Assembly: GCA_035363255.1 (NCBI GenBank)
Contig: DAOSES010000015.1
Location: forward strand, 1-58,933
Direction: 5' to 3'
DNA from: Caldisericia bacterium
Lineage (GTDB): Bacteria; Caldisericota; Caldisericia; UBA6126
Length of the DNA stretch: 58,933 nt
Below are positions 36,668-55,894 of this stretch, in pieces; position 1 is the stretch's first letter, and every line of letters begins with the position of its first letter. The position numbers were made by a program, and so were the translations under genes. The notes beneath the pieces were generated by a model. The model was given only the letters and a program-made list of their open reading frames with translations. It was not told the origin of the DNA and did not search any database.

Positions 36668-37348
36668 ATGCCAAGGGTTGTTATCATACAAGGAGCATCC
36701 GGATCTGGTAAAACCACACTCATAAAGCACTTGCTTTCATTTGCAGCGATGGAAGCCAAAAATATCGGTATCATTAAAAGTTGTGGTCATGAAATCAGCA
36801 TTGATGATGATGCTAAAAAAGATTCTTTCATATTTCAGCAGGCAGGTGCTGATAAAATCCTTTTATACCAGGGTCAACAACATACTCTTTTTAGTTATTC
36901 GGAGGATGTTTCCCTTCATGATTTAATCGATTCCTATTTTTCCGATTTTGATTTTGTATTTGTCGAAGGATTTGCTGCTTCTACTGCTTTTCCACGAATT
37001 GTGGTGATGCGTAGCACAACTACTCCAAAAACTCTCACTGACAAACACAATCTGATAGCTGTTGCCTCAGATGTCCCTTGTATATCCCCCTTTAGTGATG
37101 TTCCAGTGTTAGATCTGAATAATCCTTTAAGTATCTACAATTTCATTTGTGCCAATCCCTTTTCTTCCGCTCAGACTACCCTCAAAATTAACGGTCAGGT
37201 AGTACCTATGAATCATTTCGTAGAAAACATGCTCATCAATACCATTCTTGGTTTAGTCAAAAGCATCAAAAAAGATGACAATGAAGATACCCGTTCTCTA
37301 CAAATCAGTATTCATCTATCTCCCAACTCAAAAAAGGCCAATTCATGA
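36668..37348 (+). CDS. mobB: MobB (molybdopterin-guanine dinucleotide biosynthesis adapter, P-loop) with a C-terminal extension of about 60 aa
   Basis: N-terminus VVIIQGASGSGKTTLIKHLL. Confidence 0.75.
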   Translation: MPRVVIIQGASGSGKTTLIKHLLSFAAMEAKNIGIIKSCGHEISIDDDAKKDSFIFQQAGADKILLYQGQQHTLFSYSEDVSLHDLIDSYFSDFDFVFVEGFAASTAFPRIVVMRSTTTPKTLTDKHNLIAVASDVPCISPFSDVPVLDLNNPLSIYNFICANPFSSAQTTLKINGQVVPMNHFVENMLINTILGLVKSIKKDDNEDTRSLQISIHLSPNSKKANS

Positions 37349-38184
37349 ACTCCATCAACCACCTTCGCATATCTGTCACCCAGCGATGCAATATTAAGTG
37401 TTTTTACTGTCATCATGAAGGTCAGGAACAGATTTCCAGAGAAATGACTCCTGATGAAATCTATGTTCGTGTAAAAGATATGGCTCAGTTGGGTATAGAA
37501 TATGTCAAAATCACCGGAGGAGAACCTTTGCTTCGGGTAGATATTATGGACATCATCGCTAAAATTCGATCTCTTCCTGAAATCAAAGAAATCAGCATGA
37601 CTACCAATGGTTTTTTACTAAAAGAGTTGGCTTGCAATCTTAAAAAAGCAGGCCTGGATCGCATCAACGTAGGTTGTGATGCTCTTTATTCCAATGAATT
37701 ACCAAAAAGTATGGATATCATTCTCCCAGGAATTCAACAAGCACTTTTAGCAGGTCTTCGACCCATTAAAGTTAATATGGTCGTACTAAAAGGGCTCAAT
37801 GACCATGAAATCCCCACCATGATCCAACATGCCTCCCAAGTAGGTTTTATTCTCCAGCTTATTGAATTGATACCCAATGGCAACCCTTCTTTTGATCAAT
37901 ACCATTTGTCTTTGGACAATATCGAAAAGGACTTGGAAAAACGAGCTGATAAAGTCATGGTGCGAAGTTTACAAGGAAGAAAACAATTCCATTTGGGAAA
38001 CGCTATAATTGAAATTGTGGGACCTACCCAATCAGGTTTTTGTGAGGCTTGCAAAAAAATCCGTATCACCTCGGACGGCATGATCAAACCTTGCCTCATG
38101 CGTTCTGACAATCTGATACCTTATACTGGGATAGAGTCTATCAAAAAAGCGTTGAAACTTAAATCTCCCTATCATCCTGCATAA
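37345..38184 (+). CDS. moaA: GTP 3',8-cyclase MoaA (short, archaeal-type radical SAM)
   Basis: CNIKCFYCHHEG radical-SAM cluster and the second-cluster Cys CEACKK...C. Confidence 0.85.
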   Translation: MNSINHLRISVTQRCNIKCFYCHHEGQEQISREMTPDEIYVRVKDMAQLGIEYVKITGGEPLLRVDIMDIIAKIRSLPEIKEISMTTNGFLLKELACNLKKAGLDRINVGCDALYSNELPKSMDIILPGIQQALLAGLRPIKVNMVVLKGLNDHEIPTMIQHASQVGFILQLIELIPNGNPSFDQYHLSLDNIEKDLEKRADKVMVRSLQGRKQFHLGNAIIEIVGPTQSGFCEACKKIRITSDGMIKPCLMRSDNLIPYTGIESIKKALKLKSPYHPA

Positions 38185-41917: not shown

Positions 41918-42497
41918 TTTGGAAATGTTGGAGCTATTTCAATCGATAGGAGTTATTAAAAAAGGTCATTTTCGTTTATCTTCAGGAAAACACTCGGATA
42001 CCTATCTTCAATGCGCCATATTACAGCAATATCCTGAGCATCATGCCAAAGCTCTGGTCTCTATCACAGATAAAATTCTTAGCTATCAACCTAATGTGAT
42101 TGTAGGAGCAGCTGTTGGTGGTATTATCTCAGCTTATGAGTTGGCAAGACTTAGTCATGCAAGATGTATTTTTGCTGAAAGAGTCGATGGGATTCTTAAG
42201 TTTCGCCGTGGATATGAATTGTATCCCGAGGATCGAATAGTTTTGATTGAAGATGTGGTTACTACAGCCAAAACCACTCTTGAACTTATCGAGCTTGTTA
42301 AGAGCCATGGTCTCGAGCCTCTTGCAATCACTGCATTAGTTGATCGTCAAAAGAATGATTCTACTCCTATCCCTTATCCTTTCTTTTCTCTGCTTAAAGT
42401 TGAGGCTGTTCTTTTTGATGAAACAGAGTGTCCTTTATGCAATGAAAACATACCTTTGACCGATCCAGGATCACGAAGACTACATTCCAAATCATGA
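41910..42497 (+). CDS. pyrE: Orotate phosphoribosyltransferase
   Basis: PRPP motif VLIEDVVTTAKT. Start chosen at the ATG overlapping the pyrF end. Confidence 0.85.
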   Translation: MTDLEMLELFQSIGVIKKGHFRLSSGKHSDTYLQCAILQQYPEHHAKALVSITDKILSYQPNVIVGAAVGGIISAYELARLSHARCIFAERVDGILKFRRGYELYPEDRIVLIEDVVTTAKTTLELIELVKSHGLEPLAITALVDRQKNDSTPIPYPFFSLLKVEAVLFDETECPLCNENIPLTDPGSRRLHSKS

Positions 42498-43171
42498 AAG
42501 TTGAGCTAATTGCCAACACTCCTGATCCCCTATCACTCTTTGCGCAATCTGCCCGAATTACCCGATCCAAAGATGAACAGTGGAAGTCCAATGAGTATTA
42601 TTTTAAAATCTTGTATCTCTCTGGTCATCACAGTGTCTTTGAGCATGCTTCCTTTTCGTTTCTGATACAGGACATATCTCGAGCTTGCTCTCATCAACTA
42701 GTTCGATTTCGTGTCGGGGTAAGCTTTACCCAGCGCAGTCAACGCTATACAGAAGAATCATCTTTTCCTTATACTTGTCCTCCGAGTATTCAAAATTCAA
42801 CTGAAGCTCATCTCCTTTTCGAAGATTTCATGGAGAAAGCAAGAAAAACTTATGAGCAACTCGTGGATCTTGGAATACCCAAAGAGGATTCCCGTTTTGT
42901 TCTTCCCAATGCCACCCATACTTCCATCATTATGACCATGAATTATAGGGAGTTGATCCATTCATGCGGTTTGAGACTCTGCGATAAATCACAGTGGGAG
43001 ATTCGGGCCCTTTTCTGGCGAATCAGATCTTTAGTACAAAAAAAAGAGCCCATTCTTGCCCAATGTCTTTACCCAAGGTGCTTTCACGATAGATTATGCA
43101 AAGAATCAAAACCTTGTCGTTTAAAAGACTATTACATTAACAAATCTCTCCATTGGGGCAAGGAATTTTAA
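42494..43171 (+). CDS. thyX: Flavin-dependent thymidylate synthase ThyX
   Basis: The ThyX signature is present with a substitution: R(F)RVGVSFTQRSQRY versus the canonical RHRx7S. Confidence 0.8.
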   Translation: MKVELIANTPDPLSLFAQSARITRSKDEQWKSNEYYFKILYLSGHHSVFEHASFSFLIQDISRACSHQLVRFRVGVSFTQRSQRYTEESSFPYTCPPSIQNSTEAHLLFEDFMEKARKTYEQLVDLGIPKEDSRFVLPNATHTSIIMTMNYRELIHSCGLRLCDKSQWEIRALFWRIRSLVQKKEPILAQCLYPRCFHDRLCKESKPCRLKDYYINKSLHWGKEF

Positions 43172-43179
43172 TTAGCGTG

Positions 43180-43207
43180 TTGTTAATAGCACTAAATACG
43201 TTAGAAT
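43180..43207 (+). promoter_or_regulatory. Candidate promoter TTGTTA-16-TAGAAT upstream of the hydrogenase regulatory/structural gene block
   Basis: Hexamers seen by eye. It is followed by a leader of about 60 nt containing a T8 run. Confidence 0.3.
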
Positions 43208-43270
43208 TATAAGAGAGCAGTTTTGCTGTACGTAGTTGCATGTTTTTTTTAAGGGGAAGAAAAAAACTAG

Positions 43271-43636
43271 ATGACAGTTGACGAAATTATTGAAGCTGTA
43301 GGGGCTGAAATCCTTCAAGGTAAAGGAAGAACAGACCTAAACATTAATTACGCTTTTGCAGCAGATTTAATGAGTGATACTCTGTTTATTGTTGCTAGAG
43401 ACGATGAACCCATCTTGCTTATTACTGGTGTCACTAATCCATCGGTCGTTCGTACTGCAACAATTTTAGATATCCCCCTGGTGCTTATTGTTCGTGGTAA
43501 AAAGATCCCCCCTGAAACAATTCAGCTAGCTATTGACAACGAAATTATATTGCTTCTTACTTCAAAGATTATGTTCGATTCTTGTGGTTTACTATACGAA
43601 AGAGGCATGAAAGGTTGTCCATGGAGACTGAAGTGA
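43271..43636 (+). CDS. DRTGG-domain protein
   Basis: The pattern ...LMSDTLFIVARDDEPILLITGVTNPSVVRTA...IVRG resembles the DRTGG domain. Confidence 0.65.
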   Translation: MTVDEIIEAVGAEILQGKGRTDLNINYAFAADLMSDTLFIVARDDEPILLITGVTNPSVVRTATILDIPLVLIVRGKKIPPETIQLAIDNEIILLLTSKIMFDSCGLLYERGMKGCPWRLK

Positions 43637-44070
43637 TCAATAAACTTGATTTTTCTGTTGGAGCCTCAGATTACCCCAGCATTGGCTCAAGGGCTCTTGA
43701 AGTAAAAAAAAAGTTAAAAGATTTTTTTCCCACGGGCGATTATCTCAGACGCTTGGGGGTATGCATTTTTGAAGTTGAAGCTAACTTAGCCATACATACC
43801 AGCCAGGGTGGAACTCTTGAAATTATTGTTTTTAAAGATCGTGTTCGCATTATTGCATCCGATTCAGGTCCTGGTATAAAAGATCTTTCAAAGGCTCTCA
43901 CACCAGGTTTTTCCACTGCACCAGAGTCTGCCAGGCAACTTGGTTTTGGCGGAGGGGTTGGGATCAACAATGTGAAACGATTCGCTGATTACTTCTTCCT
44001 TACAAGCTCTAAGCAAGGTACAATTCTTTTATTTGAGGTGTGGAATGATGACGATAAAGCAGCTAACTGA
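43621..44070 (+). CDS. HATPase_c-family protein (anti-sigma-factor/Ser-Thr kinase-like, RsbW/SpoIIAB-type)
   Basis: N-box EANLAIHTSQGG and G-box DSGPGIKD...GFGGGVGI. Confidence 0.7.
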   Translation: METEVINKLDFSVGASDYPSIGSRALEVKKKLKDFFPTGDYLRRLGVCIFEVEANLAIHTSQGGTLEIIVFKDRVRIIASDSGPGIKDLSKALTPGFSTAPESARQLGFGGGVGINNVKRFADYFFLTSSKQGTILLFEVWNDDDKAAN

Positions 44071-44383
44071 ATCTTTACCCCTTAAAGTTCTCACTCCGAA
44101 TCTCAATCTTGAACAAACATTTGAGATGGTTTATTCTTCAGATTTATTGAGTCAGGTTCTTGCGAAAGCTACCTACCGTGATCTTTGGATCACTGTACAA
44201 ACCCATGCTACCATCCTCGGAATAGCTTCAATCAAACAAATTCCTTGCATCATTTTTTCTGAAGGACTTCTTCCTCAGCCAGAAGTAATCATGAAAGCAC
44301 AGGATGAAAATATAGTTTTGTTGTCAAGCCAACAAACAACTTTTGAATTAGCAGGTAAAATTTTTGTTTTATTAAATATATAG
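44045..44383 (+). CDS. Second DRTGG-like domain protein
   Basis: Similar size and pattern to 43271-43636. It overlaps the HATPase gene end. Confidence 0.55.
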   Translation: MMTIKQLTESLPLKVLTPNLNLEQTFEMVYSSDLLSQVLAKATYRDLWITVQTHATILGIASIKQIPCIIFSEGLLPQPEVIMKAQDENIVLLSSQQTTFELAGKIFVLLNI

Positions 44384-44394
44384 GTGGTGTTGAT

Positions 44395-44859
44395 ATGAGT
44401 GAGATTAATTATTCCCAAATTGACTTTGTGATCAAGCGCGAAGGATCTCAAGAGTCCTCTCTTATTCAGGTGCTAAATGGGACACAGGAAATTTTAGGAT
44501 TTCTCCCCAAAGAGGCTTTAGTTTATATTTCAGAAAAATTAAAAGTTCCCTTATCCCGAACTTATGGGATTGTCACTTTTTATAATTTTTTCAAAACTGA
44601 AAAAGATGCTGATCATGTCATAAGTATTTGCATGGGAACAGCCTGTTATGTCAAGGGTGCAAATGTTATTTTAAAAAAACTGGAAACTGAGTTAAATATT
44701 AAAAGTGGTCAAATCACTCCAGACAAGAAATTTTCAATTCGCGAAGTCCGATGCATTGGAGCATGCGGTATGGGTCCACTTATTTCAGTAGATGGAGTCG
44801 ATCTATATGGTCGAGTTCAAGTGGATATGATTCCCGAAATCCTGAACAAATACAGATGA
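44395..44859 (+). CDS. hydC: NuoE-like [2Fe-2S] hydrogenase subunit (HydC/HndA type)
   Basis: Thioredoxin-like 2Fe-2S motifs CMGTACYVKG and CIGACGMGP. Confidence 0.85.
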   Translation: MSEINYSQIDFVIKREGSQESSLIQVLNGTQEILGFLPKEALVYISEKLKVPLSRTYGIVTFYNFFKTEKDADHVISICMGTACYVKGANVILKKLETELNIKSGQITPDKKFSIREVRCIGACGMGPLISVDGVDLYGRVQVDMIPEILNKYR

Positions 44860-45404
44860 AAGAACTCTCCATGAACATTTTGGATATCTTGCACAATTCG
44901 GTGCATGCAAATCCAAAAAACATCTATCTCACAATCCTTGAAGATAGCTCAAAAGATCTACTTCAATTCACAGTCAAAGATGATGGTAAAGGTATGAGTC
45001 AGGAATATGCCTCCAAAGTTTTTGATCCTTTTACTACAAGCAGTTCTACCAAAAACGTAGGACTCGGATTGCCTTTTCTTAAGATTCAATGCGAAATGTG
45101 TAATGGATCTGCCCATTTGACAAGCAAAGAAGGCCTTGGTACAGAAGTTGAGTTCAGCTTTCAACTTTCTCATGTTGATCGCCCTCCCATGGGAGATTTG
45201 GCAGGTACTTTGACGATCATGTTCACTATGCACCATTACATTTCATTTCATTTCAAATATTGCAAAGACCATCAGTGTTTTGAGCTTAGTACTGATGAAC
45301 TTAAAAGTTTAATGCAAGATGTTCCTTTGCAACATCCAAAAGTTGCAAAAGGCATAGAAGACTATATTAATACAAATTTAACAGAATTACAGGGAGGTTA
45401 TTAA
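44856..45404 (+). CDS. HATPase_c-domain protein embedded in the hydrogenase operon
   Basis: NILDILHNSVHA...DDGKGM...GLGLPFLK. ATGA start/stop overlap with hydC. Confidence 0.7.
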   Translation: MKELSMNILDILHNSVHANPKNIYLTILEDSSKDLLQFTVKDDGKGMSQEYASKVFDPFTTSSSTKNVGLGLPFLKIQCEMCNGSAHLTSKEGLGTEVEFSFQLSHVDRPPMGDLAGTLTIMFTMHHYISFHFKYCKDHQCFELSTDELKSLMQDVPLQHPKVAKGIEDYINTNLTELQGGY

Positions 45405-45778
45405 TGGCAAAGATTAACTCATTGGAAGAACTCAGAAAACTTCGTGATCAGGCAAAAGAAACCATGACCGCACGAAGCGGAAGTGCAAAAGTTAAAATTT
45501 TTGCAAGCATGGGAACTGTTGGGATAGCAGGGGGAGCTCGTGAAGCTCTGAAAGCCATGATTGATGAGTTGGAAAAAAGAGACTTCCACGATGTTGAAAT
45601 TATTGAAAGCGGTTCCATGGGTTTGGATCGCGAAGAACCAGTCATTTCAGTCGAACGTGATGGATACATGACTACCTACGGTAGAGTTTCTCCCGATATG
45701 GCTCGTCAAATCGTTGCCCAGCACGTTATCAATGGACAAATTGTTAGCGAATGGGTGATTGCGAGGAACAAGAAATAA
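45404..45778 (+). CDS. Small HydD/HndB-like protein: thioredoxin-like ferredoxin fold with no cysteines
   Basis: It aligns to the N-terminal [2Fe-2S] domain of the following NuoF-like protein, with all four Cys positions replaced (ASMGTVGIAGGA, GSMGLDREEP). Confidence 0.6.
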   Translation: MAKINSLEELRKLRDQAKETMTARSGSAKVKIFASMGTVGIAGGAREALKAMIDELEKRDFHDVEIIESGSMGLDREEPVISVERDGYMTTYGRVSPDMARQIVAQHVINGQIVSEWVIARNKK

Positions 45779-47436
45779 TGAAAATATATCGGATTCATGC
45801 TCTAATATGCGCTGGTGGTCAATGCATCACTGCTGGCGGAGATAGTTTTGAGGAAGCATTAAAGCATGCTATTAAAGAAAAAGGGCTGGAAGACGAGATA
45901 CAAGTAGTGGAAACGGGCTGTATGGGAGCTTGTGAAAAGGGTCCCATGATGGTGGTATATCCTGAAGGAGTACTTTACATCCATCTTAAAGCGAGTGATG
46001 CGGAAGAAATTGTAAACGAGCATTTCTTAAAAGGACGTCCAATTCAGCGATTGATGTGGAAAGAAGCAGATGGAAACTTCCCCACTCTCGATCAGGTTCC
46101 ATTTTTTACTCACCAAACCAAAATTGTATTACGTAATTGCGGTCTAATTGATTCTGAAAGCATCGAAGAATATATTGCACAAGATGGTTATAGCGCTCTT
46201 GCAAAAGCTTTGTCCTCTATGACTCCTGCTGAAGTTGTCGATGAAATAAAAAAATCAGGTTTACGTGGTCGTGGAGGAGCTGGTTTTCCAACTGGAATCA
46301 AATGGGAATTAGCCTACAAACAAGATGATCCAGAAAAATATATCGTTACCAACGCTGATGAAGGTGACCCTGGAGCATATATGGATCGTTCATTGCTTGA
46401 AGGAGATCCGCATACTGTAATTGAAGGTATGGCTATTGCCGCTTATGCTATCGGAGCTTCTAAAGGATTTATTTATTGTCGCGCAGAATATCCAATTGCT
46501 ATTAAACGTCTTCAAATTGCCATTAAAAAGGCAAAACAGGCTGGTTTGTTAGGAAAAAATATCCTTGCATCTGATTTTTCCTTTGATCTTGAAATTCGAA
46601 TGGGTGCAGGAGCTTTTGTTTGTGGTGAAGAAACTGCTCTTCTCAATTCAATCGAAGGCAAGCGGGGAGAACCACGGAAAAAACCCCCTTATCCCGCCCA
46701 AAAAGGCTTATTTGGCAAACCTACTGTGATTAATAACGTTGAGACTTTTGCCAATGTCCCATTTATTATTTTGGAAGGGGCTGAGAAATTTCGCAGAATC
46801 GGTACTGAAACCAATCCTGGCACCAAAGTGTTTTCTCTTGCAGGAAAGGTTATCACTACTGGTTTGATAGAAGTACCCCTTGGGATTAGTCTTCGTAAAA
46901 TTATCTATGACATCGGTGGCGGCATCCCTGATGGCAAAAAATTCAAAGGTGCCCTTATGGGTGGACCCTCTGGTGGAGTTATACCTGCATCAAAATTGGA
47001 CACTCCCATCGATTATGAATCTTTAAATGAAATCGGCTCAATGATGGGTTCTGGTGGCTTGATTGTCATGGATGAAGACAGCTGTATGGTGGATATAGCC
47101 AAATTTTTCCTCAAATTTACCGTTGATGAAAGCTGTGGTAAATGCACTCCATGTCGCGAAGGTACACGTCAAATGCTCGAACTACTTGAGCAAATATCCT
47201 CAGGTAACGGAAAGATGTCCGATTTAGACAAACTTGAACGTCTTGCTGAGACCATTCGTATGACCTCGCTTTGTGGATTGGGTCAAAGCGCTCCTAATCC
47301 AGTTTTATCTACTATCCGATGGTTTAGAGATGAATACGAGGATCATATTAGAAATCATAAATGTACAGCCGATGTATGCAAAATGAAACCACACGATTTG
47401 GAGGTAAAGAAACGTGTCAAAAAAATCACTCATTGA
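45778..47436 (+). CDS. hydB: NuoF-like NADH-binding hydrogenase subunit HydB, with an N-terminal thioredoxin-like [2Fe-2S] domain
   Basis: CAGGQC...CMGAC, FMN/NADH motifs GLRGRGGAGFPTGIKW, N3 cluster ESCGKCTPCREG...C. There is no C-terminal 2x[4Fe-4S] domain. Confidence 0.85.
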   Translation: MKIYRIHALICAGGQCITAGGDSFEEALKHAIKEKGLEDEIQVVETGCMGACEKGPMMVVYPEGVLYIHLKASDAEEIVNEHFLKGRPIQRLMWKEADGNFPTLDQVPFFTHQTKIVLRNCGLIDSESIEEYIAQDGYSALAKALSSMTPAEVVDEIKKSGLRGRGGAGFPTGIKWELAYKQDDPEKYIVTNADEGDPGAYMDRSLLEGDPHTVIEGMAIAAYAIGASKGFIYCRAEYPIAIKRLQIAIKKAKQAGLLGKNILASDFSFDLEIRMGAGAFVCGEETALLNSIEGKRGEPRKKPPYPAQKGLFGKPTVINNVETFANVPFIILEGAEKFRRIGTETNPGTKVFSLAGKVITTGLIEVPLGISLRKIIYDIGGGIPDGKKFKGALMGGPSGGVIPASKLDTPIDYESLNEIGSMMGSGGLIVMDEDSCMVDIAKFFLKFTVDESCGKCTPCREGTRQMLELLEQISSGNGKMSDLDKLERLAETIRMTSLCGLGQSAPNPVLSTIRWFRDEYEDHIRNHKCTADVCKMKPHDLEVKKRVKKITH

Positions 47437-47842
47437 AAAGCTGCTTGACCTTCAGGATTCTCAAAAAAATACGAATCATCTCCCAAAAAAACAATTAGTT
47501 GAAATATCGAAAGAATGTCAAACTCCTCTTGCTGAAACTTATGGCGTTGCTACTTTTTATACCATGTTTTCAGTCGAACCCCGAGGAAGACATATCATTC
47601 GTATTTGCGAAAATCAGTCATGTCATATGGCTGAAGCACTTAGTGTAGTTGAATCACTTAAAAATCATCTCAATATTGAATTTGGAGAAACTACTGCCGA
47701 TGGCCTGTTTACCCTCGAGCATAGCAGTTGCCTTGGTATGTGTTCGATAGCTCCATGTATGATGATCGATGATCATCCCTACGGGAACCTTACACCCTCC
47801 AAAATTGTTGACATCATCAACAAAATTAAGGCAGGTGAATAA
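47414..47842 (+). CDS. Second NuoE-like [2Fe-2S] subunit
   Basis: CENQSCHMAE...CLGMCSIAPC. GTG start with GGAGG RBS. Confidence 0.8.
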   Translation: MSKKSLIEKLLDLQDSQKNTNHLPKKQLVEISKECQTPLAETYGVATFYTMFSVEPRGRHIIRICENQSCHMAEALSVVESLKNHLNIEFGETTADGLFTLEHSSCLGMCSIAPCMMIDDHPYGNLTPSKIVDIINKIKAGE

Positions 47843-47845
47843 TTT

Positions 47846-49516
47846 ATGAAGTTTTATAGAACACATGTATTGATTGCCAGTGATGCAAAAAGCCTGGTAC
47901 TTGGAGCAAAAAGCATTCAGGATTTGTTAATTTCTGCCTTAAAAAAATACAAACTGGAAGACGAAGTTAAGGTTATTCCAACGGGTAGCCTTGGTTTTGA
48001 AGAAACTGGTGTAGCCATCATGGTATATCCTGAAGGCATCATTTATGCACCTGTAAATCATCAAAATATTGAAGAAATTGTAGTCGAACACTTCCTCAAA
48101 GGCAGAGTTGTCAATAGTCTGAAAAAGCTACCAAAAATTTCCAACATCTCTGCTGGTTCCCTTGAAAATCAAGCAATTTTAGATGTGCAACAAAGAGTAG
48201 TCTTGGAAAATGTCGGTATTATCGATCCTGAAAACATCATGGAATACATAGCCAGAGAAGGCTATTCTGCAATTGAAAAAGCAATATTTAGCCTAAAACC
48301 AGAAAATGTGATTGAAGAACTTAAAATTTCTGAACTTCGTGGAAGAGGTGGTGCTGGCTTTCCCACAGGCTTAAAATGGGACTTTACGCGTAAAGCTATT
48401 GGAGACAAAAAATACGTTATTTGCAATGCAGATGAAGGCGAGCCTGGTACATTCAAAGATCGTGAAATCATGGAAGGAGACCCCCACAAACTCATTGAAG
48501 GGATGATGCTTGCTGGATACGCCACGGGAGCAGACTACGGATATATCTATATCCGCGGAGAGTATGCTTTATCCATAAAAAGACTTGAAAAAGCTATCGC
48601 AGATGCAAGAGAATACGGGCTTCTCGGTAAAAATATCTTAAATAGCCAGTTTAGCTTTGACTTGGAAGTTTATAAAGGCGCTGGAGCCTATGTTTGCGGG
48701 GAAGAAACCGCACTAATCGAATCAATTGAAGGCAAACGTGGCGAACCACGAAAAAAACCCCCTTACCCCCCTACCTCAGGTTTATGGGGAAAGCCTACAG
48801 TAGTCAACAACGTGGAAACTCTTGCAAATATCCCTTCCATCATAAGGAATGGTGGATTCTGGTACAAAGGGATTGGAGTTGAAGGTTCCCGCGGGACTAA
48901 GCTTTTCAGTCTAATGGGAGATTTAAAATGGAAAGGAGTGGTTGAAATTCCTTTTGGCACCCACCTTTCCAACATTATTAGCAATCTTGGCTTGGGAATA
49001 AGCAACGGCAAATCACTCAAAGGAGTCATCCTTGGAGGATCATCGGGCTTTTTAATCAAACCCGACGAGCTTGAAACTCCAGTAGATTTTCACTCCCTTG
49101 CTCAAATAGAAGCTGGTCCAGGCTCTGGATCTATTGTAGCAATGGATGAACATCGTTGTATCGTGGATATGATAAAAAATATTGCTCAATTTTTTGAGCA
49201 TGAAAGCTGTGGAAAATGCACACCATGTCGAAATGGCACGAATCAGATAGTAGCAATACTTGAACGTATCTCCTCAGGTGATGGCAAACTTGAAGACCTG
49301 CGTAATCTTGAAACACTTGGAAACACGATGGCTCAGGCTTCCTTCTGTCCTCTGGGGCAAACTGCTCCAAACATCATGATTCAAGCTATAAAAAAATACC
49401 GTAGTGAGTTTGAAGCTCATATCATCGATAAAAAATGTCCAGCTAATGTTTGCCGTTTCTATGAAGACACTTTAATAAAACAAAACAACAATCCAAGGGA
49501 GGTTGAAAATGAATGA
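47846..49516 (+). CDS. Second NuoF-like subunit, whose N-terminal thioredoxin-like domain lacks the Cys ligands
   Basis: ELRGRGGAGFPTGLKW and CGKCTPCRNG are conserved. The N-terminus reads LIASDAKSLVLGA / TGSLGFEETG where the paralog has CAGGQC / CMGAC. Confidence 0.8.
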   Translation: MKFYRTHVLIASDAKSLVLGAKSIQDLLISALKKYKLEDEVKVIPTGSLGFEETGVAIMVYPEGIIYAPVNHQNIEEIVVEHFLKGRVVNSLKKLPKISNISAGSLENQAILDVQQRVVLENVGIIDPENIMEYIAREGYSAIEKAIFSLKPENVIEELKISELRGRGGAGFPTGLKWDFTRKAIGDKKYVICNADEGEPGTFKDREIMEGDPHKLIEGMMLAGYATGADYGYIYIRGEYALSIKRLEKAIADAREYGLLGKNILNSQFSFDLEVYKGAGAYVCGEETALIESIEGKRGEPRKKPPYPPTSGLWGKPTVVNNVETLANIPSIIRNGGFWYKGIGVEGSRGTKLFSLMGDLKWKGVVEIPFGTHLSNIISNLGLGISNGKSLKGVILGGSSGFLIKPDELETPVDFHSLAQIEAGPGSGSIVAMDEHRCIVDMIKNIAQFFEHESCGKCTPCRNGTNQIVAILERISSGDGKLEDLRNLETLGNTMAQASFCPLGQTAPNIMIQAIKKYRSEFEAHIIDKKCPANVCRFYEDTLIKQNNNPREVENE

Positions 49517-51335
49517 TCAAACTGTCAATATAACCATTAATGGGAAACCATTTAGCGTAGCTGCTCATAGCACCATTCTTGAAGCTTGTGAAAAAGCTCA
49601 TATCCATGTGCCCACTTTGTGCTACCTTAAAGAGATTTGCGAAGAGGGCTCATGTGGAATCTGTGTAGTCGAAGTTGCAAAAGCAAGAACATTGCAAAGA
49701 GCTTGTATTACTGAAGTTTTTGAAGGTATGGAAATTAAAACACATACTCCCCGAGTGCTTGAAGCAAGAAAAACGGTAGCTGAACTTATTCTTGCAAATC
49801 ATCCTAAAGACTGTCTTTCCTGCGATGCAAATGAATCTTGTGATTTACGTCAACTCACTTACGATTTAGGTATTTCCGAAGTACATTTTGAAAAAACTCG
49901 TGAAAATGATTTTGAACTCGATCTCACATCTCCTTCGTTTAAACGTGACATGAATAAATGCATCCTTTGCAAACGTTGTGTTGAAGTTTGCGAAAAAGTT
50001 CAGTCGGTATCAGTTATTGACACTGCCGGACGAGGCATGAAAAATCGAATAGCAACTTTTATGGATCGTGGTATTGGTGAATCCTATTGTATTAATTGCG
50101 GTCAATGCGTTTTGGTTTGCCCCACTGGCGCTCTTATTGAACAAAGTGAAGTTGATCTCGTTTGGAAGGCTTTGGCAGATCCCAAAAAGATTATCCTGGT
50201 TGAAACAGCTCCAGCAGTGCGCGTTGCTATTGGTGAAGAATTTGGTCTTCCTGCTGGATCCCTGGTTACCAAACAAATGGTTGCTGGTCTTCGTCGATTA
50301 GGTTTCACGAAAGTATTTGATACCAATTTCTCTGCCGATTTAACCATTATGGAAGAAGGTTATGAGCTTATAGGTCGCATTAAAAAGGCACTAGGTCAAG
50401 ACAAAGGTGAATACCACGGTCCCACCAATCTTCCAATGATCACCTCTTGCTCTCCTGGTTGGATCAAATTTGCTGAACACTTTTTCCCTGGAGTTTTAGA
50501 TCATCTATCAACTTGCAAGTCACCTCAACAAATGTTTGGTGCTGTAGCAAAAACATACTACGCTGAAAAGTTAAAAGTTGATCCCAGAGATATTGTAGTC
50601 GTTTCTATCATGCCTTGTGTTGCAAAAAAATATGAAGCAAAACGCCCTGAAATGAATAGTGCTTTCCATTATTGGAAAAACAAACTTCATCTTACTGATG
50701 ATCAATCTTTCCAGGATGTTGACCATGTACTTACCACTCGTGAAGCTGCCCGTATGATGAAACAAGCAGGTATTTTCCTTCCAGATCTACCTAATGAAGA
50801 GTTTGATCAGCCTCTAGGTTCATCTACCGGTGCTGCTGTGATATTCGGTTCATCGGGCGGAGTTATGGAAGCTGCAATCCGTACTGCTTATGAAGTTATC
50901 ACAGAGTCTCCTCTGCCTAAGCTTGATTTCGAAGAAGTCCGTGGCTTGCAGGGCATTAAAAGCGCTACTATCGATATTCAAGGGCTGGGACTTAAGATTG
51001 CTGTTGCCAATGGCCTTGGAAATGCTCGAGTTCTTCTTGAACAAGTTGCCAAAGGCGAATCACCCTATCATTTCATCGAAGTAATGGCATGTCCAGGTGG
51101 TTGTATCGGTGGAGGTGGACAACCCTATCCCACTAATACCGAAGTAAGAGAAAAACGTATGAAAGCAATCTATTGTGAAGATTGTAATTTACCCATACGT
51201 AAATCCCACGAAAATCCATCTATTACTGACATTTACAAAGATTTTCTTGGACAGCCCAATGGTGAAAAATCCCACCATCTATTACATACCTCCTACACTC
51301 AACGCGACATCTACGAGCAAGAAAAAGAAAGATAA
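49509..51335 (+). CDS. hydA: [FeFe] hydrogenase catalytic subunit HydA (M3-type: 2Fe-2S + His-ligated 4Fe-4S + 2x4Fe-4S + H-domain + C-terminal SSU-like tail)
   Basis: L2 motif MPCVAKKYEA, L3 motif EVMACPGGCIGGGGQP, L1 reads TSCSPGW. N-terminal cluster motifs CYLKEICEEGSCGIC, HPKDCLSCDANESC, CILCKRCVEVC, CINCGQCVLVCP. RBS GGGAGG lies 8 nt before the ATG. Confidence 0.9.
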   Translation: MNDQTVNITINGKPFSVAAHSTILEACEKAHIHVPTLCYLKEICEEGSCGICVVEVAKARTLQRACITEVFEGMEIKTHTPRVLEARKTVAELILANHPKDCLSCDANESCDLRQLTYDLGISEVHFEKTRENDFELDLTSPSFKRDMNKCILCKRCVEVCEKVQSVSVIDTAGRGMKNRIATFMDRGIGESYCINCGQCVLVCPTGALIEQSEVDLVWKALADPKKIILVETAPAVRVAIGEEFGLPAGSLVTKQMVAGLRRLGFTKVFDTNFSADLTIMEEGYELIGRIKKALGQDKGEYHGPTNLPMITSCSPGWIKFAEHFFPGVLDHLSTCKSPQQMFGAVAKTYYAEKLKVDPRDIVVVSIMPCVAKKYEAKRPEMNSAFHYWKNKLHLTDDQSFQDVDHVLTTREAARMMKQAGIFLPDLPNEEFDQPLGSSTGAAVIFGSSGGVMEAAIRTAYEVITESPLPKLDFEEVRGLQGIKSATIDIQGLGLKIAVANGLGNARVLLEQVAKGESPYHFIEVMACPGGCIGGGGQPYPTNTEVREKRMKAIYCEDCNLPIRKSHENPSITDIYKDFLGQPNGEKSHHLLHTSYTQRDIYEQEKER

Positions 51336-51348
51336 CACTCTCAAAAAA

Positions 51349-51381
51349 GAGGCAAGGGCTTTTGCCCTTGCCTCTTTTTTT
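51349..51381 (+). terminator. Rho-independent terminator after hydA
   Basis: GAGGCAAGGGC-tttt-GCCCTTGCCTC followed by T7. An A-run upstream makes bidirectional function possible. Confidence 0.8.
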
Positions 51382-51460
51382 ATTGAATTATTCTAGGCTT
51401 GTGATACCTTATATGATATCCAGTAAGTGATGAATATATGAGAATAATTAAGGATTAGCA

Positions 51461-52300
51461 ATGGAAGACAACTTTTTAAACGCTCAAGGGATTACCAAGT
51501 TTTTATCTGAAGAATCGGGCGTACAAAAAGCAAGGCTTGATTTAAAATCGCTCCTCATTCTTGGTTTTATGGCCGGAGCATTTATTTCTTTCGGAGGCAT
51601 GATCTCGGTAGTAGTTCTTACTGATAGCTCTTTTTTTATTGGTAAAGCCTTGAGTAAAATTCTAGCAGGAATGTTTTTCAGTATGGGCTTGTTGCTCGTT
51701 TTATTAAGCAATGCAGAACTTTTTACTGGTAACAGTCTTATGCTTATATCTTTATTCAACAAAAAAATTACTTTTATCAGACTCTTAAGAAATTGGTTCT
51801 TTGTCTATTTGGCAAATTTTCTTGGTTCAATGTGCCTTGCTATTTTATTGTTTTACTCAGGTATTTGGAAAAACGATCAATACCTCTATGCACAAACCAT
51901 CCATTCTATCGCACTAAAAAAAGTCAGTTTGCCTATTATTGAAGCTTTTTTTCGAGGTGTTTTATGTAATTGGCTGGTTTGTCTCGCGATATGGATGAGT
52001 TTTTCTTCCAAAGCCATTGTCAATAAATTTTTTGCTATTCTTTTACCCATAACAAGCTTTATTGCATTGAGTTTTGAGCATAGTGTGGCAAATATGTTTA
52101 TATTACCTTTTGCTTATTTGACTCAAACATCTCTTTCAACTATCTCAATTCCAACAACAACTATTCCAAGCATGATTGAGCTCAATTGGACAACTATTCT
52201 CAGTAACAATTTACTACCAGTTTCATTGGGAAACATTGTTGGCGGAGTTTTCTTTGTATCATTCATTTTTTGGCTTGCTTATTGCCATCAAAAGCTGTAA
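51461..52300 (+). CDS. focA: Formate/nitrite transporter family channel (FocA-like)
   Basis: FNT hallmark FSMGLLLVLLSNAELFTGN and six TM segments. Confidence 0.8.
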   Translation: MEDNFLNAQGITKFLSEESGVQKARLDLKSLLILGFMAGAFISFGGMISVVVLTDSSFFIGKALSKILAGMFFSMGLLLVLLSNAELFTGNSLMLISLFNKKITFIRLLRNWFFVYLANFLGSMCLAILLFYSGIWKNDQYLYAQTIHSIALKKVSLPIIEAFFRGVLCNWLVCLAIWMSFSSKAIVNKFFAILLPITSFIALSFEHSVANMFILPFAYLTQTSLSTISIPTTTIPSMIELNWTTILSNNLLPVSLGNIVGGVFFVSFIFWLAYCHQKL

Positions 52301-52320
52301 CATGAAAGAAAGAAGAATAT

Positions 52321-52758
52321 ATGCCAATTACCAACATTAGCCAAAAACATCCACAACTTCGTACCGCAATAGCTGAAGGAAGCATCCTACTTTCAGCCCA
52401 TACCATGCATCTCATCTTAGACAAGCAAATCCCCAAGGGTGATCCATTGCAAATCGCTGAAGCTGCAGCCCTATTAGCCATCAAACAAACACCCTATCTG
52501 ATTCCACATTGTCACCCCATTCCCATACATGGGGCGGAAGTTTTTTTTAGACTCTCCGATTCTACTCTTACATGCAGTGTTAAAGTTATTTCTTTTGGAG
52601 TCACAGGTATCGAAATCGAAGCCATCACAGGAGTAAGTATTGCACTTTGCACTATATGGGATTGTGTAAAATATCTTGAAAAAAATGAACATGGAGAGTA
52701 CCCAAACACTATGATTCAATCAATCAAAGTAATACAAAAAGAAAAAAAAGATGTCTAA
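52321..52758 (+). CDS. moaC: Cyclic pyranopterin monophosphate synthase MoaC
   Basis: HMHLILDKQIPKGDPLQIAEAAALLAIKQT...GVTGIEIEAITGVSIAL. Confidence 0.9.
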   Translation: MPITNISQKHPQLRTAIAEGSILLSAHTMHLILDKQIPKGDPLQIAEAAALLAIKQTPYLIPHCHPIPIHGAEVFFRLSDSTLTCSVKVISFGVTGIEIEAITGVSIALCTIWDCVKYLEKNEHGEYPNTMIQSIKVIQKEKKDV

Positions 52759-53974
52759 ATCAGGTTTTCATCAACTTCACTCTTTGAAAGAGGCTTTGGA
52801 AATACTCTATAGTATATCTACTCCAGTTCAAGAAACTGAGTTCAGTCTTGATCAAGCATTAAACAAAATCTGTAGCAGAGATATAAACGCTCCTATTGCT
52901 GTGCCTTCTTTTTCAAAATCAGCTATGGATGGTTATGCAGTTTTATCCTCTGACACTTACTATGCCAGTCCTACTAGACCAATCGCTCTTGAGCTGATTG
53001 GGGAGATACTTCCAGGCGAAGACACAAAGCAAGTGATTTCTACGGGACAATGCATTGAAATAGCTACTGGTGCCAAAGTTCCTGAAGGAGCAGATGGTAT
53101 TGTAATGGTTGAACATACTGAAAAAGAAGGCACTCAAGTGAAAGTTTTCAGTTCAACGGCCCCTGGTCACCATATTATCCAAGCTGGATCGGATATCTCA
53201 AAAAACCAGTTAGTAGTAAAAAAAGGTACCAGACTCACTGCAAGGCATACTTCTCTCTTGTCAGGGCTTGGCATGGAGAAAATTCATTGCTTCCAAGGCC
53301 TTGTTGTCGCTGTAGCCTCTACTGGCAACGAAATAGTACGACCTCCCAATCCGCTTGCTTCAGCTCAATCATATGATATTAATGCTAGAGCCCTAATTGA
53401 TTCTATTAGGGAATATGGCTGTGTCGCCAAAGATTTTGGTGTAATCGTGGATGAGGCTAAAGAAATTGAAAAAACCATTCTTGAGATGGTCAAACAAGCT
53501 GATATTGTAGTTATTAGCGGTGGGTCTTCGCTGGGTACAAAAGATTTAATACTCGAGCAGATTAACAAAATAGGACAAGTCTTAGTGCATGGAATTGCAG
53601 TTAAGCCAGGCAAACCAACTCTAATAGGTAAAATTCAAGATAAACTAATCTTAGGCCTCCCTGGTCATCCCGCTTCTGCATTGTCCAATTTTTTCATTCT
53701 GATAAAGCCATATCTGGATTTTTTGTTTCAAGTTCATACCTCGATTACTCCGTTTATAGATGCTCGATTAACTTGTAAAATTGCCTCTACTATTGGAAGG
53801 TTTGAATTTATCCCTGTACAAGTTCAAGAATGCGACTCTGAATTCTTGGCGCTTCCTCAACTAAAAGGTTCGAGTGCAATTTCTCCGATGATGAATAGTG
53901 ATGGTTATATCAAGATTAACGAAAACATAGAAGTTTTGGATAAAAATACCTTGGTTCGAGTTTTTTTGTTTTAA
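52751..53974 (+). CDS. moeA: Molybdopterin molybdenumtransferase MoeA
   Basis: FSKSAMDGYAV...ISGGSSLGTKD...GLPGHPASAL. Confidence 0.85.
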   Translation: MSKSGFHQLHSLKEALEILYSISTPVQETEFSLDQALNKICSRDINAPIAVPSFSKSAMDGYAVLSSDTYYASPTRPIALELIGEILPGEDTKQVISTGQCIEIATGAKVPEGADGIVMVEHTEKEGTQVKVFSSTAPGHHIIQAGSDISKNQLVVKKGTRLTARHTSLLSGLGMEKIHCFQGLVVAVASTGNEIVRPPNPLASAQSYDINARALIDSIREYGCVAKDFGVIVDEAKEIEKTILEMVKQADIVVISGGSSLGTKDLILEQINKIGQVLVHGIAVKPGKPTLIGKIQDKLILGLPGHPASALSNFFILIKPYLDFLFQVHTSITPFIDARLTCKIASTIGRFEFIPVQVQECDSEFLALPQLKGSSAISPMMNSDGYIKINENIEVLDKNTLVRVFLF

Positions 53975-54465
53975 TGAAGAAGTACTTGTTAGGCATTCTT
54001 GTTATATCAGACAGCTCTTTTAATAAAACTCGAATTAGCACTACTCAAGACCTTATCATTGATCATCTTCATGACTTGTTTGATATATCGGTTGTTAAAA
54101 TTATACCCGACCATCCACTTGAAATTGAAACTACCTTGTCTGAATGGGCTGACAATCTCCATCTCGATTTAATACTCAGCACAGGTGGAACTGGAGCAAG
54201 TCCAAGGGATTTTACGCCAGAAGCAAGCATGAAGATATTTGATAAAGAGATACCCGGTATTTCTGAGTACTTAAGAATAAAAACAATCGAAAAAACTCCC
54301 TACGCTTGTTTATCCAGAGGAAAATCAGGTAGTCGCAAGCAAACCTTGATTATAAATCTTCCGGGTAGCTCTAAAGCAGTGAAAGAGTATCTTGAACTTC
54401 TCCAACCCATCCTTGGTCATGCCATAGATATCATTCAAGGGAAAGTAAATCGTTGTGGAGGGTAA
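53974..54465 (+). CDS. mogA: Molybdopterin adenylyltransferase MogA/MoaB
   Basis: LILSTGGTGASPRDFTPEA. Confidence 0.8.
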   Translation: MKKYLLGILVISDSSFNKTRISTTQDLIIDHLHDLFDISVVKIIPDHPLEIETTLSEWADNLHLDLILSTGGTGASPRDFTPEASMKIFDKEIPGISEYLRIKTIEKTPYACLSRGKSGSRKQTLIINLPGSSKAVKEYLELLQPILGHAIDIIQGKVNRCGG

Positions 54466-54468
54466 GGT

Positions 54469-54717
54469 ATGAATAATATACATGTTCTTCTCTTTGCGGG
54501 TATTCGTGAAGGCATTGGTCTTGACAAGCTAATTTTGAGCTATCCTCAAGGTATTACTTTGGGTCAACTCATCCAGGATATGGAAACAACATATCCTCAT
54601 CTTTTGCGCTTGTTCAGATCTTGTCAATTCATTGTTAATTGTCAGGAAATCCAAGTGGATTATATCCTACAGGATAATGATGAGGTTGCAATTCTTCCTC
54701 CCTTGGGAGGGGGTTAA
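54469..54717 (+). CDS. moaD: Molybdopterin synthase sulfur-carrier subunit MoaD
   Basis: 82-aa ubiquitin-like protein ending in GG (…LPPLGGG). Confidence 0.7.
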   Translation: MNNIHVLLFAGIREGIGLDKLILSYPQGITLGQLIQDMETTYPHLLRLFRSCQFIVNCQEIQVDYILQDNDEVAILPPLGGG

Positions 54718-54723
54718 AGATTT

Positions 54724-55131
54724 ATGCTCAAGCTTCAAAAAGATCCTCTTGATCTTCAGGAATACTTTAAAAGCATCAATGCAAGCATTGGGGCTTGTTT
54801 ATTTTTTGCAGGCATCGTCAGAAATGCTCCGGAAGATCAACAAGTTCAAGGGATCGAATATCATGCTTATGACAAGTTATGCTTTCACAAAGAAAAGCAT
54901 TTTGAGCAGAATTTCAAGTCTCTTTTTCCTGACAAATCTTATCATATCGTTCACCGTTTGGGTTATGTGCCAGTCAAAGAAACTTCCTTAATAGTTACGC
55001 TATTCTCACCTCATCGCAAAAAGTCATTTTCTTCTCTTGAGTTTATCGTCGAATGGATCAAATCGGATCTTCCAGTGTGGAAAAAAATCATTCATTGTGA
55101 TGGCAGTAGTCATTGGAAAGCCAACTTTTAA
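54724..55131 (+). CDS. moaE: Molybdopterin synthase catalytic subunit MoaE
   Basis: Size and position after moaD, with a pattern resembling the MoaE family (GIVRN...HRLGYVPV). Confidence 0.8.
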   Translation: MLKLQKDPLDLQEYFKSINASIGACLFFAGIVRNAPEDQQVQGIEYHAYDKLCFHKEKHFEQNFKSLFPDKSYHIVHRLGYVPVKETSLIVTLFSPHRKKSFSSLEFIVEWIKSDLPVWKKIIHCDGSSHWKANF

Positions 55132-55132
55132 C

Positions 55133-55894
55133 ATGAATAACTCTGATCCTTTATTTCGATATGAACGCCAACTTTGGATGAAATCAATATCTCTCGAGGG
55201 TCAAAAAAAAATAGCTCAAACCTCAGTTTTAGTGGTTGGAGCTGGAGGTTTAGGTTCACCCATTTTATTCTATTTAGCTGCTGCTGGGATAGGTAAAATA
55301 GGAATTATGGATGACGACCAAATCACTTCAAGCAATCTAAATCGACAAATACTATACACTACCAAAGATCTAGGTTTAAAAAAAAGCTCAACTGCAAAAC
55401 AACGCATTCAAGATCTCAATCCCTCCATCCGCGTTGAAGACTATTCTGAACGTTTAGATCAGCATAATGCCCAAAACATCATTTCAAAATATTCTTTACT
55501 TATTGATGCTAGCGATAATTATCCCACCAGATATCTGATCAACGATACCAGTGTTTTATTGAGGATTCCACTCTTCTTTGCAGCGGTATCTGCTTGGTCA
55601 GGAATTTTCTTCGCACGAATACCCCATCGTAATCAAGCATGTTTTCGTTGTTGTTATCCTGTTCCTTTGCCAGAAGCAGAATCCCAGGATGAAAAACATG
55701 CTGGGATCATTGGTGCTACTGCTGGCTTTCTTGGTTCTTTGCTTTGCACTCAAATCATCCAGTATATTACTCAGGACACCTTTGCATATGAAGGTAAAAT
55801 GTTATGGGTTGACCTTGAAAAAGCCAGGTTTTTCACCTATCCTTGCACTCTTAAAGAAACTTGTTTGTGTCATTCACTTGAAAAAGCATCATGA
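55133..55894 (+). CDS. moeB: MoeB/ThiF-family adenylyltransferase (MoaD-activating E1-like)
   Basis: VLVVGAGGLGSPILFYLAAAGIGKIGIMDDD and a C-terminal CxxC...C motif. Start taken at the ATG 2 nt after the moaE stop. Confidence 0.8.
   Translation: MNNSDPLFRYERQLWMKSISLEGQKKIAQTSVLVVGAGGLGSPILFYLAAAGIGKIGIMDDDQITSSNLNRQILYTTKDLGLKKSSTAKQRIQDLNPSIRVEDYSERLDQHNAQNIISKYSLLIDASDNYPTRYLINDTSVLLRIPLFFAAVSAWSGIFFARIPHRNQACFRCCYPVPLPEAESQDEKHAGIIGATAGFLGSLLCTQIIQYITQDTFAYEGKMLWVDLEKARFFTYPCTLKETCLCHSLEKAS

Follow-up and report, generated by a model that had tools for sequence, protein, structure and literature searches.

The DNA analyzed here, referred to throughout as the window, is a 58.9-kb stretch (58,933 nucleotides of contig DAOSES010000015.1) from a Caldisericota bacterium, and it carries an [FeFe]-hydrogenase operon of ten tightly packed genes on the plus strand (43271-51335 in the list of open reading frames [ORFs]). 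Our subject is the set of accessory genes in this operon, which encode two small DRTGG-fold proteins (DRTGG-a and DRTGG-b), an ATPase between them (HATP2), and a second ATPase (HATP181) among the hydrogenase subunits. The features of the locus are as follows.

43180..43207, plus strand: candidate sigma-70-like promoter, TTGTTA-16-TAGAAT, 5' of the first gene of the operon (consensus scan; prediction only)
43271..43636, plus strand: DRTGG-a, a stand-alone DRTGG-fold protein of 121 amino acids
43621..44070, plus strand: HATP2, an RsbW/SpoIIAB-type GHKL ATPase and putative Ser/Thr kinase of 149 amino acids
44045..44383, plus strand: DRTGG-b, a paralog of DRTGG-a, 112 amino acids (Pfam scores; hhalign)
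44395..44859, plus strand: HydC/NuoE-like thioredoxin-like [2Fe-2S] subunit (Pfam 2Fe-2S_thioredx, E 1e-42)
44856..45404, plus strand: HATP181, a stand-alone GHKL ATPase of 182 amino acids (HATPase_c, 56 bits)
45404..45778, plus strand: HydD-like small subunit, 124 amino acids (alignment)
45751..47436, plus strand: HydB/NuoF-like flavoprotein, copy 1 (start probably the ATG at 45778)
47414..47842, plus strand: second NuoE-like subunit (Pfam search)
47846..49516, plus strand: second NuoF-like flavoprotein, with an N-terminal domain without Cys
49503..51335, plus strand: HydA, the [FeFe]-hydrogenase catalytic subunit (Fer2_4, NADH-G_4Fe-4S_3, Fer4, H-domain, and small-subunit domain)

The gene order is DRTGG-a, HATP2, DRTGG-b, HydC/NuoE, HATP181, HydD-like, NuoF, NuoE, NuoF, and HydA. 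All five ORFs of the segment 43271-45404 were present on the plus strand at the coordinates listed, and neighboring genes overlap by 16 nucleotides (DRTGG-a/HATP2), by 26 nucleotides (HATP2/DRTGG-b), in an ATGA (NuoE/HATP181), and in a TAATG (HATP181/HydD). An earlier, sequence-only reading of this DNA had assigned the domains, the gene order, and the start/stop coupling, and the ORFs, Pfam matches, and junction overlaps bear it out on all three. Both hexamers of the candidate promoter, at -35 and -10, are conserved in the Caldisericota loci L007 and L008. Downstream of the putative promoter and ahead of the DRTGG-a start, we observed the motif ACGTAGTTGCATGT (43225-43240, plus strand), which occurs in L007 as ACGTAATTGCATGT and in a looser form in L008; it is matched by no Rfam family and may be an operator or a leader element. 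An Rfam scan of positions 42000-52500 gave no riboswitch or leader, and its one small-RNA match, at the hydA terminator, was far below threshold. The promoter region opens with TTGTTAA, as a Rex operator might, but the second half-site mismatches the TTGTTAAnnnnTTAACAA type tabulated for Thermoanaerobacterium saccharolyticum, and no Rex operator is claimed.

The reading frames of the accessory genes are intact, and all family-invariant residues and ATP-binding motifs are kept. Compared with Caldisericota orthologs, these genes showed nonsynonymous differences per site (pN) of 0.11 to 0.28 against saturated synonymous differences (pS) of 0.68 to 0.85, a pattern of purifying selection; pN and pS are given because saturation left no dN/dS ratio for several pairs. 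The low pN against saturated pS shows that the accessory genes are real and selected, and their conservation and selection lie far above chance expectation. The closest homologs were found in Caldisericota/Caldisericia metagenome-assembled genomes (MAGs) with identical synteny, including the upstream genes pyrF-pyrE-thyX. A defense system was also considered and was rejected because the PADLOC models gave no match.

HATP2 matched the Pfam family HATPase_c with 31 bits, above the gathering score, and HATPase_c_2 with 20 bits. Its N box (ExExN..H), G1 box (DxGPGI), and G2 box (GFGxGxG) are intact, and these boxes are conserved in 78 homologs. The best solved relative in the PDB was the anti-sigma F factor SpoIIAB (E 3e-4), and the best NCBIfam match was spIIAB, with 32 bits, far under the family cut-off of 135; no curated NCBIfam family fits DRTGG-a, DRTGG-b, HATP2, or HATP181, with all matches far under cut-off. 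DRTGG-b reached 30.1 bits with Hpr_kinase_N, above gathering. With the DRTGG family itself (PF07085), the two window proteins scored 18.2 and 22.0 bits (DRTGG-b the 22), under the gathering threshold of 25.2, while the fold itself is that of DRTGG and two homologs exceeded the threshold (P0151 with 37.3 bits and L018 with 32.7 bits). The DRTGG-a and DRTGG-b profiles aligned in hhalign with 99.7% probability and an E value of 1e-25, which makes the two proteins clear paralogs. The family of DRTGG-a conserves the motifs DLMSD, LLxTGxxN, RT, and VRGK, and the signature of DRTGG-b is DLLS followed by W[IV]TxQxH. The two paralogs share two invariant residues, the DL[ML]S Ser and the [LW][IL]T Thr, and in the predicted structure model the Ser stands just ahead of a lower-confidence loop; by inference only, these two residues are candidate phospho-acceptors.

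HATP181 contains the N, G1, F, and G2 boxes, and its profile matched KinB with an E value of 3.5e-16. It combines a histidine kinase-type catalytic and ATP-binding domain with a conserved C-terminal sub-domain of about 80 amino acids carrying the motif HxDRPPxGD, and the predicted structure contains a Bergerat fold plus a small alpha/beta sub-domain and nothing more. No HisKA match and no dimerization or phospho-acceptor His domain (DHp) was found in its 182 amino acids, and the operon contains no receiver gene. The extended Bergerat ATPase domain is present, and the transducer domain of GHL proteins is absent, because HATP181 stops after 182 residues, short of the 303 to 344 residues of the MutL N-terminal fragments that it matched.

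To place these genes in other genomes, a DRTGG-a pattern search was used, which matched at least 585 species-representative genomes; our census covers the best 80 loci, with components scored by hidden Markov models built from the loci and with denominators that count the loci with enough downstream sequence. A profile search returned 1905 clusters (50% identity), and for 864 of these the E value was 1e-10 or lower. The 80 loci span Caldisericota, Bacillota, Bacteroidota, Syntrophales and other Desulfobacterota, Spirochaetota, Synergistota, Thermotogota, Chloroflexota, and Dictyoglomota. HATP2 follows DRTGG-a directly in 71/75 loci; DRTGG-b was found in 49/69, a PHP phosphoesterase in 44/66, HATP181 in 44/64, NuoF in 39/56, and a hydrogenase-like protein, HydS(M2e), in 32 of 71. 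Co-conservation of the module with hyd genes extends over at least seven phyla, and the possibility that the two never co-occur, which the sequence-only reading had named as a refutation, fails. In its full form, seen in distant relatives, the cluster reads DRTGG-a, HATP2, [FeFe]-hydrogenase-like protein, DRTGG-b, PHP, (NuoE), HATP181, HydD, HydB, and HydA. The inserted hydrogenase-like protein, 390 to 470 amino acids long, combines an H-domain with two [4Fe-4S] motifs and a C-terminal Cx2Cx4Cx16C and lacks a PAS domain; by these sequence features it fits the published definition of group D, M2e HydS (PMC8163306). Wherever a HydS(M2e) ORF adjoins the module, it stands directly after HATP2 (every such locus listed). 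All five proteins of the segment 43271-45404 are 33 to 49% identical to those of the full Halanaerobiaceae cluster L001 and lie in the same order, and the Halanaerobiaceae ortholog beside HydS(M2e) shares 40% identity with HATP2.

Architectures were compared where the downstream sequence reached 8.5 kb or more, which was the case in 56 loci. The full cluster occurred in 12 and partial versions of it in 6. PHP without HydS was the most frequent arrangement (21/56 loci, most of them Syntrophales, with one locus each from Thermotogaceae and Chloroflexota), DRTGG-a and HATP2 stood alone in 7/56, and in a further 6/56 they were accompanied by HydS only, among unrelated neighbors. Three of the 56 loci have neither HydS nor PHP, and all three are Caldisericota loci that match the window and L005-L007; these three are also the only PHP-less ones among the loci that have both DRTGG-b and hyd genes. 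No HydS or PHP homolog was found by tblastn in the 58.9-kb window, and the matching loci of six related Caldisericota MAGs lack both as well (for HydS, L005-L010). The arrangement without HydS and PHP is kept under purifying selection in six other Caldisericota loci, in lineages that are 58 to 72% identical. Additionally, stand-alone DRTGG-a-HATP2(-HydS) units lie far from any hyd or NuoF gene in Syntrophorhabdus and in spirochaetes. Such units argue against an obligatory structural or assembly role of the DRTGG/HATP2 part; they fit a diffusible signaling role and are compatible with either a post-translational or a transcriptional output. Two variations were seen in Syntrophales: clusters in which a NuoF of about 1018 to 1025 amino acids is fused to a GltD-like module (Fer4_20 plus Pyr_redox_2; L015, L018-L020, L033, L039-L046, L053, and others), and several loci with an extra upstream DRTGG-a paralog, giving three DRTGG proteins per kinase.

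Natural fusions divide the accessory genes into two separable sub-modules, DRTGG-a-HATP2-DRTGG-b and PHP-HATP181, and in this respect the single module proposed in the sequence-only reading has to be given up. In the first sub-module, P0151 joins DRTGG-a and HATP2 in a single chain of 277 amino acids, and in the Caldisericum locus L090 HATP2 runs in frame into DRTGG-b, also over 277 amino acids, with the internal Shine-Dalgarno sequence and ATG kept. HATP2 also carries an N-terminal pair of CBS domains (CBS-CBS-HATP2) in the Chloroflexota loci L076 and L077 and in Dictyoglomus L088. For the second sub-module, PHP and HATP181 form one protein of 427 amino acids in a Lentimicrobiaceae MAG (L041), and HATP181 occurs without the first sub-module in L089. 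The proposal that DRTGG proteins are the partners of the kinase is supported by the 71/75 adjacency and by the in-frame fusions on both sides of the kinase. The fusions match no described protein family, and the idea that annotation had split a single known regulator, the other refutation named beforehand, was rejected on that basis. As that reading had also stated, no sigma factor and no STAS partner lies beside these genes. No STAS match was found in the operon proteins or the flanking ORFs screened; no PP2C gene was found in the operon, and tblastn with the PP2C protein of L004 was empty across the window; and no sigma-factor gene was found in the operon, in the screened flanking genes of the window, or in ten Pfam-annotated homologous contexts.

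The enzyme behind the accessory genes has a HydABC (Bfu) core, in which HydA with its H-domain is combined with NuoE-like and NuoF-like subunits. The name HydABCSL was followed as a lead to extra subunits and dropped as irrelevant, since it denotes a NiFe enzyme. After HydC, the NuoE/NuoF pair is duplicated (NuoF-NuoE-NuoF); Caldisericota conserve this arrangement, and similar ones occur in Chloroflexota L077 and Thermotogaceae L035. NuoF copy 1 has an N-terminal thioredoxin-like domain with four Cys, and the corresponding domain of copy 2 is Cys-free. Neither copy has a Fer4 match, so the 2x[4Fe-4S] domain that canonical HydB carries at its C terminus is missing from both, while HydB of L001, L003, L004, and L088 (596 to 600 amino acids) has the C-terminal ferredoxin-like domain. 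In the HydD-like protein, none of the Cys conserved among Bacillota and Bacteroidota homologs remains (C to V, S, or D). This protein was also the most conserved in the operon, with 96% amino acid identity to L007 at saturated synonymous sites (92% for HydA). Thus, a HydD without its cluster is under very strong constraint despite the loss of Cys, which suggests a structural or regulatory role.

The same accessory genes also precede a different catalytic subunit. In Caldisericum L090 (L090:1-9473, minus strand), the operon NuoE-HATP181-HydD-NuoF-NuoE-NuoF ends in a molybdopterin FdhA of 904 amino acids, with FocA, MobA, and FdhD. A tblastn survey found FdhA-type subunits behind the module in L019, L020, L044, L046, L053, L063, and L077, both types in L031, and true H-domains in about 25 loci; FdhA stands in place of HydA in approximately one-quarter of the resolved loci. 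It looks as though FdhA and HydA have been exchanged as catalytic subunits on a NuoE/NuoF scaffold that is itself conserved. Because either subunit can follow the same module, the accessory genes track the NuoE/NuoF (Bfu-type) core and not HydA. The view of the module as a hydrogenase module therefore holds as far as co-conservation with hyd genes is concerned, and does not hold as a claim of hydrogenase specificity. Molybdenum cofactor and formate genes also lie around the operon of the window: downstream (51461-55894, plus strand), a FocA-like formate/nitrite transporter, MoaC, MoeA, MoaB/Mog, a MoaD-like protein, and ThiF/MoeB, and upstream (36668-38184, plus strand), MobB and MoaA.

Both ATPases have been noticed before and are uncharacterized, and the Caldisericota version is a minimal variant of that accessory system. 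HydE of Acetobacterium woodii (Awo_c27000) is a histidine-kinase-like ATP-binding protein encoded between hydC and hydD (PMC3315566), and HATP181 is its positional equivalent, by position and domain type. A "histidine-kinase-like ATPase" or "kinase" has been described beside group D M2e HydS, in a place between that sensor and the bifurcating hydrogenase (PMC3561251, PMC8163306), and a Halanaerobium operon list names these genes, with the first ATPase as "anti-sigma regulatory factor" (PMC4237134). M2e HydS is regarded as sensory, and its signal transduction is stated to be unknown (PMC8163306, PMC3561251); TamHydS is a low-activity putative sensor hydrogenase with an adjoining AraC-type gene (PMC8163306). 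The description of the module as unassigned, made from the sequence alone, thus stands for function and falls for prior notice. Searches of the literature for DRTGG together with hydrogenase, kinase, or anti-sigma returned nothing relevant, and no paper was found that ties DRTGG to these ATPases. For the DRTGG domain itself, the regulatory region of the CBS-domain pyrophosphatases (CBS-PPases) shows DRTGG-DRTGG' dimer contacts, and only the DRTGG-containing CBS-PPases respond to diadenosine polyphosphates, such as Ap4A (bioRxiv 10.1101/2020.04.07.028951).

Taken together, the best explanation of the accessory genes is that they are a reduced, Caldisericota-specific form of a widespread module that heads HydABC/Bfu-type hydrogenase and formate dehydrogenase operons. 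That this module carries out a partner-switching-like form of signaling for NuoE/NuoF-type H2/formate enzymes is, judged from sequence and gene context, an evenly balanced proposition. The observations above establish the reality of the genes, their folds, intact ATP-binding motifs, co-occurrence, fusions, and lineage-specific losses; binding among the proteins, phosphotransfer, the signal sensed, and the protein acted on are inferred. The DRTGG proteins would stand in for STAS antagonists around the RsbW-like kinase, and HATP2 would bind the DRTGG-a/DRTGG-b pair in an ATP/ADP-dependent manner and probably phosphorylate it. The input would be modular, with M2e HydS between the kinase and DRTGG-b in Bacillota, Bacteroidota, Synergistota, and spirochaetes, and a CBS pair fused to the kinase in Chloroflexota and Dictyoglomus. 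Since the window has neither HydS nor a CBS input, its input must be intrinsic or trans-encoded; an intrinsic input would be a small ligand on the DRTGG/kinase core, with adenylate as the obvious candidate. In the second sub-module, HATP181, normally together with the PHP phosphoesterase, would act as an ATP-dependent switch or kinase at the NuoE/HydD end of the enzyme, and PHP would be the presumed reset enzyme, lost in the Caldisericota lineage. The output would be the amount or the activity of the reversible NADH/ferredoxin-linked H2/formate enzyme, possibly via HATP181 and HydD. In its most specific form, the proposal states that DRTGG-a, the kinase, and DRTGG-b constitute an unrecognized partner-switching class with interchangeable inputs (M2e HydS, CBS pairs, or intrinsic nucleotide sensing) that gates NuoE/NuoF H2/formate enzymes post-translationally via HATP181/HydD, and this we regard as tentative and rather improbable.

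Several observations weigh against signaling by partner switching. The HydS sensor is absent from the window, and the window operon contains no phosphatase (neither PHP nor PP2C), so that a phosphorylation cycle would have no reset enzyme unless one is encoded elsewhere. The census consists of the 80 best-scoring loci and is not a random sample, and the equivalence of HATP181 and HydE is one of position and domain type. The fold of HATP181 is nearer to MutL/GyrB-type clamps than to kinases, with the consequence that ATP-driven assembly fits it as well as signaling does. Such an assembly or maturation role, in which the DRTGG proteins and the GHKL ATPases, HATP181 above all, would be ATP-driven chaperones or scaffolds for the NuoE/NuoF/HydD/HydA (or FdhA) complex or for cofactor loading, agrees with the position of HATP181 between the structural genes hydC and hydD with translational coupling on both sides, with the way the module travels with the NuoE/NuoF core whichever catalytic subunit follows, and with the occurrence of HATP181 without the first sub-module in L089. 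HydE is not part of the purified A. woodii enzyme, for which "assembly or signalling" was left open (PMC3315566). However, we consider assembly unlikely: DRTGG-a-HATP2(-HydS) units occur alone and far from hyd or NuoF genes, HATP2 is of the anti-sigma/Ser-kinase type, and the CBS-HATP2 fusions and the inserted low-activity putative sensor hydrogenase point to signaling. In addition, many HydABC operons without these genes, such as that of Thermotoga maritima, give an active enzyme.

The relationship of HATP2 to SpoIIAB, in both the PDB and the NCBIfam searches, also raises an anti-sigma circuit, in which HATP2 would sequester a sigma or transcription factor encoded elsewhere, the DRTGG proteins would be anti-anti-sigma analogs, and control would be purely transcriptional. 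The stand-alone units suggest the diffusible output that such a circuit would have, and a transcription factor gene is found near some loci (ArsR-type in L090 and AraC-type beside TamHydS). The spIIAB score, however, is 32 bits against a cut-off of 135, the operon, the screened flanking genes, and the ten annotated homologous contexts contain no sigma gene, and the second ATPase among the structural genes is left unexplained; we judge purely transcriptional control to be quite unlikely. Finally, the absence of the normally associated HydS(M2e) and PHP from the window and from the six related MAG loci could mean that the Caldisericota DRTGG and ATPase genes are a decaying, functionless remnant. 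This already disfavored explanation is highly improbable, given the retention of all family-invariant residues and ATP-binding motifs, the intact and translationally coupled frames, the low pN against saturated synonymous divergence, and an arrangement that is stable across the divergent Caldisericota lineages.

HydABC-type enzymes set the H2/formate balance of fermenters, syntrophs, and acetogens, and the present analysis names concrete partners for them: among the loci studied here, no other unit is tied as closely to the group D sensor as the kinase with a DRTGG protein on either side. The unit also persists without the sensor and serves the formate dehydrogenase versions, and the DRTGG domain gains a recurring genomic partner. 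If the proposal in its most specific form is correct, these genes would provide the missing signal-transduction route of the group D "sensory" hydrogenases, with the Caldisericota operon as its minimal core. As the smallest natural version of the module, the window is a good template for reconstitution.

Other parts of the window yielded additional observations. An ORF of 82 amino acids (56545-56793, minus strand), 5 kb downstream of hydA, had a sub-threshold Pfam match to the TM1266-like "Iron-only hydrogenase system regulator, putative" (E 3.7e-4; 20.8 bits versus a cut-off of 27). A 607-amino-acid ORF (56839-58662, minus strand) contains LytB/IspH (residues 5-283) and IPP transferase/MiaA (residues 330-570), apparently joining an enzyme that produces dimethylallyl diphosphate to a tRNA-modification enzyme that consumes it. 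At 1105-2617 (plus strand), a PAS-only ORF of 108 amino acids overlaps the start of a 401-amino-acid HisKA plus HATPase_c histidine kinase, as a split or frameshifted sensor kinase, and at 31902-32549 (plus strand) a LexA-like repressor (HTH_3 plus Peptidase_S24), unrelated to the hydrogenase module, adjoins a tRNA_SAD-domain protein.

Among known systems, the group D (M2e) clusters upstream of A1 TR(M3)/A3 HydABC(D) operons (TTE0887-0894, Cthe_0335-0342, Csac_1857-1864, Halsa_1862-1871, and the flanks of TamHydS) share with the window orthologous genes for DRTGG-a, the RsbW-like ATPase, DRTGG-b, HydC, HATPase_c, HydD, HydB, and HydA in the same order. In contrast to these clusters, the window has no HydS(M2e) and no PHP, its NuoE/NuoF pair is duplicated, its HydB has no C-terminal ferredoxin-like domain, and its HydD is Cys-free. 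HATP181 resembles A. woodii HydE in its place in the order hydC-hydE-hydD-hydB-hydA1, in its domain type, and in having no DHp domain, whereas A. woodii, judged by the genes listed in PMC3315566, apparently has no upstream DRTGG-kinase-DRTGG unit. As in RsbW-RsbV and SpoIIAB-SpoIIAA, a small single-domain GHKL ATPase of the Ser-kinase/anti-sigma type with intact ATP boxes lies beside small alpha/beta proteins; in the window, however, these neighbors are DRTGG and not STAS proteins, the locus has no PP2C or sigma factor, and phosphorylation is putative. The group C HydS/HfsB systems likewise place accessory signaling genes on fermentative [FeFe]-hydrogenase operons, with PAS and PP2C where the present module has DRTGG, an RsbW-like ATPase, and PHP, and both types occur together in L004 and L058. 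In HPr kinase/phosphorylase and CBS-PPase, a DRTGG-type domain occurs together with a kinase or with CBS domains that sense adenylates, and the DRTGG-HATPase_c_2 and CBS-CBS-HATPase_c_2 fusions mimic these combinations; unlike HPr kinase/phosphorylase, the present module has a kinase of the GHKL and not the P-loop fold and stands in no HPr or pyrophosphatase context.

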